DNA of 24,513 nucleotides from Kofleriaceae bacterium (GTDB lineage Bacteria > Myxococcota_A > Polyangia > Haliangiales > Haliangiaceae), in contig DATDCH010000924.1 of assembly GCA_036524455.1 (NCBI GenBank), forward strand, positions 1 through 24,513. The letters are read 5' to 3'. The notes below the pieces were generated by a model. It was not told where the DNA came from and did no database searches. It saw nothing but the letters and a program-made list of their open reading frames with translations. Of the stretch, positions 7,893 to 9,650 are shown one piece after another. The position numbers were made by a program, and so were the translations under genes. The number at the start of each line of letters is the position of its first letter. The stretch's first letter is position 1.

Positions 7893-8180
7893 ATGGCAGA
7901 TCGGCAGCGCGCAATCGTGCTCGACCACAAGACGGTGGTGCTGGCGAGCGGCGAGCAAGTGACAACGTTCGAAGGCTGCGACGCGGAGTACCTCGCCGAC
8001 GAAGGAATCGCGCCCGGCGACGTCGTGTCGTTCACGACCGACGATGTCGGCTACGTCTTCGCGATGACAAAGGTGAAGCCGACGCCGGCGCAGCTTCGCA
8101 CGCTGCAGCAGGCGTTGGCGAACGCGAGGCGCGGCGTGCGAGTCAGGTCGGCGGCTTCGGCTCGGTCACGCGGCCGATGA
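7893..8180 (+). CDS. small hypothetical protein (95 aa)
   Basis: ATG-started ORF with good GC3 bias: MADRQRAIVLDHKTVVLASGEQVTTFEGCDAEYLADEGIAPGDVV.... The last ~12 codons overlap the convergent serpin gene's 3' end and are low-complexity Arg/Ala, so the true stop and function are uncertain. Confidence 0.35.
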   Translation: MADRQRAIVLDHKTVVLASGEQVTTFEGCDAEYLADEGIAPGDVVSFTTDDVGYVFAMTKVKPTPAQLRTLQQALANARRGVRVRSAASARSRGR

Positions 8181-9444
8181 ACAAGATCAGGCCGCTGCCG
8201 CGATCGACGATCATGAACAAGAACGGGTGATCCGCGGTGAACGGCGTCGCCTTCGCCGGCATGCCCGCGCCGGTCGCCACGACGATCGCCGTCGCCGCAG
8301 CAGCCTCGGTTCCCTGTTCGTCGACTTTGACGAATGCTTTGTGCAGCACGTCGGTGATGTAGAGCCGATCCTTGGGATCGGGCGGCTTCGCCATGCCCGT
8401 CAGATCCGCCTGCTCCGGATCGAACGCTTGCTTCATGCCGAGCGCCTGCAGCGGTTTCACGAGACGCAGCGGCTCGGCGGGATCGATCACGAACTTCGGT
8501 AGCGCGACGAGCACGGTGGTGTCGGCAAGCTTTGCCTGTAGCGCCTTGAGCTTTGCGTGCAGCGCGCGCTCGAGCGCCGGGAGACCGTCGCGCTTGTCGG
8601 GCAACAGGATGTACATCGACGCGCTGCCACCTTTGTACGGCATCTCGAGCAACGCCGCGCCTTCACCCTTCGCATGCTTGAACGAGCTCTGCAGGTGCAT
8701 CATCGGCACGCGCTTGGCCTGCTTGCCGTCGACGAAGAACTCGACGTCGCGAGTCTGTTCCTTGTTGAACTGCGAGGCCCAGTCGGCGAGGAAGTAGATC
8801 GCGTTGACGAGCACGAGCCGCGTGTCACCGGTGACCGCGCGCGGCGGCAGCAGATCCTTGATGCGCTTCTCGGTCTGCTCCTCGACCCACGCGTTGATCT
8901 TCGCGCGCACCGCTTCGGCGTTGCCGCGGAAGTCGACGATCTCGAGCGGCGCCGAGAACACCTTGCGCGTGATCGTGAAGTACGTCGTGTCGAACTGATA
9001 GTTCGCCTCGCCGTAGATGCGATTTGCGAGCTTGAGCTTGAGCGGGCGCGACGTGTCTTGCAGCGCCTGCGAGATGCGCGCCCACTGCGAGACCAGCACG
9101 TCGGTCTCGCCCTCCATGTGCATCGTCTTCTTCATCTCGGCGGCGGTGTCGCCCTTCGCGCCTGCCCACGCCATCGCGAGCGCGGTCGAGATCGAGAGCG
9201 GCGAGATCGCCGTGTTGCCGGTGCCGGCGTGCGCCCACAGCTCGAGTGCGAAGTTGTTGTTCGCCTTCACCAGCGACGTGATTTCCGCGGCCGGCGGCAT
9301 GTCGGTTCGAGCTTCGGGCACGGCTGGCTCCTGCGTTGGCGGTGCGGGTGCGGGCGCGGGTGTCGGCGCGGGCGTAGGGGGTTGCTCGGCCGGCGCCTTG
9401 TCTTTGCATGCGGCGAGGCATGCGAGGAGGATGAGTGCTCTCAT
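8143..9444 (-). CDS. serpin (serine protease inhibitor family) lipoprotein
   Basis: 433 aa. The N-terminus MRALILLACLAACKD carries a lipobox and is followed by a Pro/Ala/Thr-rich linker. The canonical serpin hinge and reactive-centre loop are present (GTEAAAATAIVVATGAGMPAKATPF), as are the C-terminal signature FTADHPFLFMIVD and a NAIYF...W-type motif (VNAIYFLADW). Confidence 0.9.
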   Translation of the reverse strand: MRALILLACLAACKDKAPAEQPPTPAPTPAPAPAPPTQEPAVPEARTDMPPAAEITSLVKANNNFALELWAHAGTGNTAISPLSISTALAMAWAGAKGDTAAEMKKTMHMEGETDVLVSQWARISQALQDTSRPLKLKLANRIYGEANYQFDTTYFTITRKVFSAPLEIVDFRGNAEAVRAKINAWVEEQTEKRIKDLLPPRAVTGDTRLVLVNAIYFLADWASQFNKEQTRDVEFFVDGKQAKRVPMMHLQSSFKHAKGEGAALLEMPYKGGSASMYILLPDKRDGLPALERALHAKLKALQAKLADTTVLVALPKFVIDPAEPLRLVKPLQALGMKQAFDPEQADLTGMAKPPDPKDRLYITDVLHKAFVKVDEQGTEAAAATAIVVATGAGMPAKATPFTADHPFLFMIVDRGSGLILFIGRVTEPKPPT

Positions 9445-9650
9445 TAGTAGTGGGGAGGTGGTTCGTTAGCGGGGCCCATGGTCGGTTCGGGTGAACGCAC
9501 GGCTTGCTTGAGCTCTTTCAGCTCTCGGTCGGTCGCGTCGAGGCGATCGCCGAACGTGCGCACGAGCGCGTCGAGCTCGCGAATCAGCTTGTCCTGGAAG
9601 GCGAGCTTTACTTCCAGGTCCTCGACCCGCTCGGCGAGCTCTGCAGACAT
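9444..9650 (-). CDS. slyX: SlyX family protein
   Basis: Translation from ATG 9650: MSAELAERVEDLEVKLAFQDKLIRELDALVRTFGDRLDATDRELKELKQAVRSPEPTMGPANEPPPHY. This aligns with E. coli SlyX (…[20 protein letters not shown]…PPPHY), including the C-terminal PPPHY. The track ORF extends to 9752, and an alternative ATG lies at 9674. The TAA stop overlaps the serpin ATG in the sequence TAATG. Confidence 0.75.
   Translation of the reverse strand: MSAELAERVEDLEVKLAFQDKLIRELDALVRTFGDRLDATDRELKELKQAVRSPEPTMGPANEPPPHY

Follow-up and report, generated by a model that had tools for sequence, protein, structure and literature searches.

Whether slyX forms a working unit with the gene that follows it, and what such a unit would say about SlyX, is the question raised by a 24,513-nt contig of a Kofleriaceae bacterium (Myxococcota_A; GenBank assembly GCA_036524455.1, contig DATDCH010000924.1, positions 1 to 24,513 of the forward strand), the whole of which we call the window. 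On its minus strand, slyX runs directly into the gene for a serpin, a protease inhibitor predicted here to be exported as a lipoprotein. We found this pair, with its tight junction, to be conserved within one lineage and confined to one serpin clade. We therefore read it as a lineage-specific, translationally coupled bicistron in which the link would lie at the level of expression and not in a shared biochemical pathway, the two products being destined for different compartments. We assign this reading a probability of roughly 0.55. The positions of the features discussed below are collected in Table 1.

The product of the upstream gene matched the SlyX family (Pfam PF04102) with E = 4.3e-15 and 56.6 bits, well beyond the gathering cut-off of 30 bits, and covered profile positions 2-67 of 67. 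It also aligned end to end with the 'SlyX homolog' of Xanthomonas in PDB entry 3EFG (E = 0.01). The maximal open reading frame (ORF) spans 9444..9752 on the minus strand, within which the ATG at 9650 yields a protein of 68 residues that starts with MSAELAERVEDLEV and ends in EPPPHY (full translation, MSAELAERVEDLEVKLAFQDKLIRELDALVRTFGDRLDATDRELKELKQAVRSPEPTMGPANEPPPHY). We take this ATG to be the true start, because 68 residues is the size of most SlyX homologues among the 120 matches listed and because an in-frame stop lies just 5′ of the equivalent ATG in three relatives (L001, L115 and L116). The same two observations rule out N-terminally extended forms of 102 residues (GTG at 9752) or 76 residues (ATG at 9674); the initial annotation had raised the prospect of an upstream start with an N-terminal domain unlike SlyX, and the homologue sizes and upstream stops do not bear this out. 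When read by eye, the SlyX sequence showed neither an export signal nor a hydrophobic N-terminus.

The downstream gene encodes a full-length serpin. Its product matched Pfam PF00079 over profile positions 2-370 of 370 (E = 2.7e-107), shares 100% identity with an entry called 'serpin family protein [Kofleriaceae bacterium]', and matched 47 solved serpins at E < 1e-40, the closest chain being human SERPINB1 (leukocyte elastase inhibitor, PDB 4GA7, E = 1.7e-68). A canonical hinge, a lipobox and a Pro-rich stalk had been described at the outset, and all three were found. By pattern reading, the N-terminus M-R-ALILLACL-A-A-C13, followed by KDK, contains a positively charged n-region, a hydrophobic h-region and a lipobox with a predicted lipidated Cys13. 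The motif L-[AVL]-[AG]-C-K-D-K recurs in serpin orthologues, with the homologous Cys followed by K-D-K almost everywhere. A lipobox pattern looser than the consensus (the consensus used being [LVI][ASTVI][GAS]C near the N-terminus) was matched by 77 of 117 bacterial homologues, including nearly all full-length members of the clade linked to slyX, mostly with K-D-K behind it. Lys occupies position +2 in 8 of 12 inner-membrane lipoproteins of M. xanthus (PMC3222651); by analogy, the Lys at +2 suggests that the serpin is retained on the periplasmic face of the inner membrane. The linker between the lipobox and the serpin domain, 43 residues long, contains 14 Pro, 10 Ala and 5 Thr.

The hinge, E376-Q-G378-T-E-A-A-A-A-T385, fits the inhibitory consensus (P17 Glu, P15 Gly, P14 Thr/Ser, small residues at P12-P9), and its GTEAAAATA segment is identical in all but two of the serpin homologues among those listed. 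The serpin is thus predicted to be inhibitory toward proteases. Counting from P15, together with a HMMER alignment to the P1 Cys of SERPINB1, placed P1 at Gly392, preceded by Thr391 and followed by Ala393. The initial annotation had sought P1 in the GAGMPAK region; indeed, Gly392 opens that stretch, and P1 is not the Met or Lys inside it. The loop is hypervariable from P6 to P1′: most of the orthologues (P0002-P0072) have MPRGG, with an Arg one position before the canonical P1, whereas the window protein has VATGA. This variability and the earlier Arg in most orthologues leave the scissile bond and the target class uncertain, and the hypervariability suggests shifting target specificity. A target protease cannot be named from P1, since the P-side of the loop varies and there is no serine protease gene in the window. 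The sole peptidase seen there is an M36 metallopeptidase, a member of a class that serpins do not inhibit.

At the junction, the letters read CAC TAC TAA TG AGA, and nt 9444 serves both as the last A of the slyX stop codon and as the A with which the serpin ATG begins. The claim of the initial annotation that a SlyX ending in PPPHY lies directly upstream on the same strand, with its stop sharing one nucleotide with the serpin start, was thus borne out by direct reading. Such 1-nt overlaps of stop and start codons are common in bacterial operons and unremarkable alone; it is the conservation of the junction in relatives, not the overlap itself, that exceeds chance. Across the seven distinct loci in which we read it, the junction measures −1 nt four times, +1 nt twice and +3 nt once. 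The window has TAATG, L115 and L116 have TGATG, and the P0009 locus has a 1-nt overlap; L001 and L089 have TGA-n-ATG (one TGA-t-ATG, the other TGA-g-ATG), and L113 has TAG-CCA-ATG. The 20 nt before the serpin ATG consist of the C-rich codons of NEPPPHY, without a purine-rich Shine–Dalgarno sequence. Since the serpin ATG sits at the slyX stop and has no Shine–Dalgarno sequence before it, the serpin is probably translated by ribosomes terminating on slyX. In these respects, namely overlapping stop and start codons, no evident ribosome-binding site for the downstream gene and a junction kept in relatives, the pair resembles classical coupled pairs with 1-nt (TAATG/TGATG) or 4-nt (ATGA) overlaps. 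Classical pairs, however, usually code for subunits or for steps of a single pathway within a single compartment, whereas the products of slyX and the serpin gene are predicted to lie on opposite sides of the inner membrane.

The adjacency is conserved in related myxobacteria, within one family-level group from soil, and is not unique to this genome. We read slyX followed by a serpin gene directly in the window, L001, the P0009 locus, L089, L113 (identical to L114), L115 and L116. Furthermore, 20 matches to the serpin and to SlyX shared exactly equal longest-contig sizes. All four of those examined were true pairs, and equal contig size indicates 16 further pairs beyond the seven read directly, although about one such coincidence among short contigs could be due to chance. 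The resulting 23 paired loci are a lower bound, because another SlyX (P0157) that had no size match was also paired with a serpin. Neighbour joining of 118 serpins gave a tree with two major clades, one of which took in all 21 linked serpins and the other none. Within the linked clade, serpin identity to the window protein ranges from 100% down to ∼50%. SlyX identity stays at 80-94% across the same clade while the serpin diverges, which argues that SlyX is selected as a protein and is more than a leader ORF.

The surroundings of the pair are less constant. We observed at least four flank arrangements: an RNase II-family (RNB) gene in divergent orientation (window), a redoxin gene in divergent orientation (L113 and L001), an RNB gene in tandem (L116 and L089), and a homologue of the small-protein gene p122 in tandem (L115). 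Because the flanks differ in these ways, the pair appears more stable than its surroundings. The guanine-cytosine (GC) content is uniform across the locus (63-70%), which rules out horizontal acquisition of the serpin gene as a compositional island. As part of the reading that we favour, the link would probably have arisen once, as the single clade of linked serpins suggests, in a family-level lineage of Myxococcota ('Kofleriaceae'-type metagenome-assembled genomes (MAGs)), and been kept there.

Within this lineage the link can fail from either side. A SlyX 85% identical to that of the window (P0184) occurs on 16 contigs. In L084-L087, only 4 nt separate its gene from the thioredoxin-like, p228 and VKOR genes, which are convergent with it and 66-87% identical to the window genes beyond the serpin and p122; these loci have no serpin and no p122. 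Conversely, L110 carries a serpin (61% identity) that is nested in the linked clade and lies between an RNB gene (71% identity), 80 nt away, and thioredoxin-like (62%) and p228 (84%) genes, with no slyX and no p122. The occurrence of slyX alone and of the serpin gene alone in the same syntenic block indicates that neither gene needs the other.

Outside the linked clade, sister-clade serpins had no slyX beside them, be it in a Labilithrix MAG, in another 'Kofleriaceae' MAG or on a 149-kb contig. Likewise, none of 80 serpin loci from other taxa (GTDB species representatives of Myxococcota, Acidobacteriota, Planctomycetota, Proteobacteria and others) had a SlyX ORF in its flanks. The SlyX profile was sensitive enough to pick out, in the metagenomic loci L108 and L109, SlyX proteins of 34-41% identity; in L004, the upstream sequence was too short to judge the presence of slyX. 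Approached from the other gene, 22 metagenomic SlyX loci included one with a serpin (L089), one too short to judge (L088, with 84% SlyX identity, the same RNB synteny and only 63 nt downstream) and 20 with none, among which SlyX identity was 34-77% and several were also short downstream. These genome and metagenome scans rule out a general link between SlyX and serpins: the adjacency is neither general nor obligate and is confined to one serpin clade. The initial annotation had presented the serpin as an unexpected partner and a handle on SlyX function. The pair is indeed real and conserved, but, being clade-limited and lost from either side, it makes a weak handle.

Elsewhere in Myxococcota, where the sequence suffices, slyX neighbours a gene for a LamG-type lipoprotein, PEGA-domain proteins or a Ser/Thr kinase. 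The first of these concerns another group of Myxococcota, with SlyX 61-68% identical to that of the window, in which a LamG/concanavalin-like lipoprotein gene lies ∼100 nt downstream of slyX on the same strand (L102 5830-6231, L103 505-1284, L105 807-1556), a second instance in which slyX precedes the gene for an exported lipoprotein.

In the bicistron that we propose, slyX and the serpin gene would be co-transcribed from a shared promoter, and most serpin translation would come from ribosomes that reinitiate right after terminating on slyX (termination-reinitiation), so that serpin output would be tied to slyX expression. SlyX would then stay in the cytoplasm as a small coiled-coil protein, while the serpin would be exported, lipidated on Cys13 and held in the envelope on its Pro-rich tether of ∼43 residues, where it may inhibit serine or cysteine proteases as a suicide substrate. 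Because SlyX lacks an export signal and the serpin is predicted to be exported, the mature proteins are unlikely to form a stable complex. Several points weigh against this account. The missing Shine–Dalgarno sequence before the serpin is weak evidence, and the serpin may have a promoter internal to slyX. The L110 serpin, which has no slyX before it, is evidently expressed from the 80-nt intergenic region, so that coupling is not essential for serpin expression. Lastly, the neighbour-joining tree of the serpins carries no bootstrap support values.

Alternatively, the adjacency may have been inherited by chance within a lineage that is fairly young and carry no selective meaning, the tight junction reflecting only genome compaction. 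This would agree with the confinement of the link to one clade, with a syntenic block that can hold slyX alone (L084-L087) or the serpin gene alone (L110), with the varied neighbours of slyX elsewhere in Myxococcota, and with distant p122 homologues that are likewise unlinked. However, the pair survives at least four flank rearrangements, and its junction stays between −1 and +3 nt while serpin identity falls to ∼50%, a persistence above what unselected adjacency usually shows. We thus consider an accident of descent possible, albeit doubtful. A physical partnership before export, in which cytoplasmic SlyX escorts the metastable serpin precursor and keeps it export-competent or otherwise binds it, strikes us as a long shot. 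Coupled translation would put both proteins in one place at one time, SlyX is a coiled-coil protein (3EFG), and the search that gave 3EFG also returned a marginal, non-significant similarity to prefoldin beta (E = 0.96). Yet the L110 serpin and all sister-clade serpins have similar signal peptides and manage without slyX, SlyX is widespread in serpin-free bacteria, and the only experimental SlyX partner reported is RNase E (PMC13232886).

That partner invites another view, in which SlyX controls its own operon after transcription, either through a ribonuclease (RNase E or the neighbouring RNase II-family enzyme) or through pausing on its PPP motif. E. coli SlyX binds RNase E's catalytic domain and alters transcript levels when overproduced (PMC13232886), and most loci of the clade keep the RNB gene in synteny with slyX. 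In addition, the three codons of the conserved PPP motif occupy the stretch 9-17 nt upstream of the serpin ATG, by our estimate inside the footprint of the ribosome; a ribosome paused on PPP would then cover the serpin ATG and make serpin translation dependent on EF-P. Control by either route is nevertheless purely speculative and inferential throughout, PPPHY belongs to the family as a whole and is not peculiar to this setting, and the RNB adjacency is limited to the clade and equally adjoins the serpin gene in L110, which has no slyX. We therefore regard it as quite unlikely. Similarly improbable is a broader version, in which this lineage has taken on SlyX as a cytoplasmic controller dedicated to a protease-inhibitor module of the envelope (the serpin and p122), acting via coupled translation with an EF-P-sensitive PPP motif next to the serpin start codon, via ribonuclease control of the operon mRNA, or both. 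If true, it would be the first physiological output assigned to any SlyX protein.

Upstream of slyX, an alignment of seven regions revealed a conserved motif directly 5′ of the ATG (TCTGCTACCGTGCTCGGC in the window). In L001, L089, L113, L115 and L116, a longer form, GTAGCAGGCnGTCTGnTACCGTGC, lies within ∼35 nt 5′ of slyX and holds the near-palindrome GTAGCAG/CTGCTAC. The motif is degenerate in the window and has diverged in L084, which lacks the serpin. It might act as an operator, form an RNA hairpin or serve as a promoter element if the leader is very short. Around the operon, we detected no Rfam family and no match to a sigma-70 promoter (promoter and terminator consensus sequences were scanned in 7400-10000). 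An intrinsic terminator was likewise rejected, as the scan gave a single terminator-like match, no more than chance expects.

How far does the window SlyX resemble the one that has been studied? None of the 18 window ORFs scanned encodes an FKBP-type (SlyD-like) protein, and the neighbours of slyX are the RNB gene and the serpin gene. The slyD neighbourhood is a contextual, enterobacterial trait and not a defining feature of SlyX. Window and E. coli SlyX (P0A8R4) are of similar size (68 and 72 residues) and share the N-terminal coiled-coil segment ExLExKLAFQ and the C-terminal PPPHY. In E. coli, slyX is divergent from slyD (PMC13232886), whereas in the window it opens a bicistron whose second gene encodes the serpin. 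The view taken at the outset that SlyX has no known function is outdated: E. coli SlyX, recovered in a two-hybrid screen and listed as cytoplasmic (PMC13232886, RNA Biol 2026), binds the catalytic N-terminal domain of RNase E in a two-hybrid assay, by co-purification and in a pull-down, and binds RNase G more weakly (PMC13232886). Its overproduction changes the transcriptome (PMC13232886). RNase E binding has been demonstrated for E. coli SlyX only; this sole experimental lead on SlyX points to cytoplasmic RNA metabolism.

Lipoprotein serpins are known already. Miropin of Tannerella forsythia, like the window protein, is a bacterial serpin made as a lipoprotein precursor, anchored in a membrane and equipped with an inhibitory loop (bioRxiv 10.1101/2025.09.05.674453). 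It differs in coming from Bacteroidota, in being displayed on the surface of the outer membrane and in having several cleavage sites in its loop. Compared with miropin, the window serpin carries a Lys at +2 and a long Pro-rich tether. We know of no reported slyX partner of miropin, a point on which no search was made. A literature search on the genomic context of prokaryotic serpins found nothing useful. SERPINB1, the closest solved chain, has the hinge GTEAAAATA and the C-terminal FTADHPFLF motif in common with the window serpin; however, it is a eukaryotic intracellular clade-B serpin without a signal peptide, and has Cys at P1 and Phe at P2 where the window serpin has Gly and Thr, with a prime side that is 2 residues longer in the latter.

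A third gene travels with the pair. It encodes p122, a small secreted protein with a signal peptide, ∼95 mature residues and an invariant YVCCGGG motif, for which an avidin- or calycin-like beta barrel of 8 strands is predicted. Wherever a linked locus extends far enough to show it, a p122 homologue adjoins the pair: in the window, L001, L113, L116 and the P0009 locus it lies downstream in convergent orientation, and L115 has it upstream, in tandem. Distant homologues (50-54% identity) occur in unrelated contexts, unlinked to serpins, and the small genes downstream of sister-clade serpins (L002, L003 and L111) are unrelated, which rules out p122 as a general serpin partner. The distance from the p122 stop to the serpin stop is ∼300 nt in the window and ∼12 nt in L113. 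In the window, this interval contains most of a 95-residue ORF (p95) that overlaps the 3′ end of the serpin gene by 38 nt. We rejected p95 as a module member, since it has no homologue in any related locus and is probably not a conserved gene; the region is probably a genome-specific insertion or a spurious ORF.

On the other side of slyX, the divergent RNase II-family gene (Pfam RNB, E = 1e-72) lies outside the operon and is syntenic in L088, L089, L110, L113, L116 and the P0009 locus. Its synteny with slyX is worth recording given the reported binding of RNase E by E. coli SlyX (PMC13232886), but it is a lead only, being clade-limited and persisting in L110 without slyX. Beyond p122, three genes with overlapping junctions form a conserved block that resembles a disulfide-bond system of the envelope. 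Its synteny extends to L084-L087, L110 and the P0009 locus. The vault-domain protein, which also gave a weak Band 7 match, was found in L110 (1280-3664, 79% identity) and L116 (1805-4249) as well.

Table 1. Features of the slyX-serpin locus and its neighbours; coordinates refer to the window unless a related locus is named
Feature	Coordinates	Strand	Description and basis
slyX coding sequence	9444..9650	−	68 residues, predicted cytoplasmic coiled-coil protein, C-terminal PPPHY; Pfam PF04102
Upstream motif	9651..9668	−	Directly 5′ of the slyX ATG; alignment of 7 upstream regions
TAATG junction	9442..9446	−	slyX stop and serpin start share nt 9444
Serpin coding sequence	8143..9444	−	433 residues, predicted lipoprotein precursor; Pfam PF00079
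Signal peptide and lipobox	9406..9444	−	Residues 1-13, MRALILLACLAAC followed by KDK; predicted lipidated Cys13, Lys at +2
Pro/Ala/Thr-rich linker	9277..9405	−	Residues 14-56; composition, and Pfam/PDB alignments that start at residues 57-61
Serpin domain	8158..9276	−	Residues 57-429; Pfam and PDB alignments
Hinge and reactive-centre loop	8254..8313	−	Residues 378-397, GTEAAAATAIVVATG followed by AGMPA
p122	7466..7834	+	Small secreted protein; convergent with serpin, travels with the pair
p122 homologues	L001 3056-3430; L113 7537-7893; L115 3261-3614; L116 7270-7641		
p95 ORF	7893..8180	+	95 residues; overlaps serpin 3′ end
Three-gene block	4516-7411	+	553-residue VKOR-domain protein, 228-residue protein (p228, no Pfam match) and 190-residue thioredoxin-like protein
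RNase II-family gene	9830..11269	+	RNB and S1 domains; divergent from slyX
Vault-domain protein	11712-14078	−	∼790 residues; major-vault-protein shoulder and repeat domains (PF11978, PF17795)
M36 (fungalysin) metallopeptidase	21080-24478	+	1132 residues, with PA domain; also L115 9913-11168

SlyX is widespread and its role barely defined, so that any conserved partner is useful. The serpin partnership is real but local, and its loss from either side makes it unusable for inferring a general SlyX function. Both proteins are ordinary members of known families, and the operon is a new but local arrangement of them. Within these bounds, the locus offers a natural test bed for termination-reinitiation coupling of a cytoplasmic and an exported protein, and it marks out a clade of lipoprotein serpins in myxobacteria whose reactive-centre loop is hypervariable. 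Together, p122, slyX and the serpin gene form a conserved three-gene neighbourhood that is genetically testable in a cultured relative.

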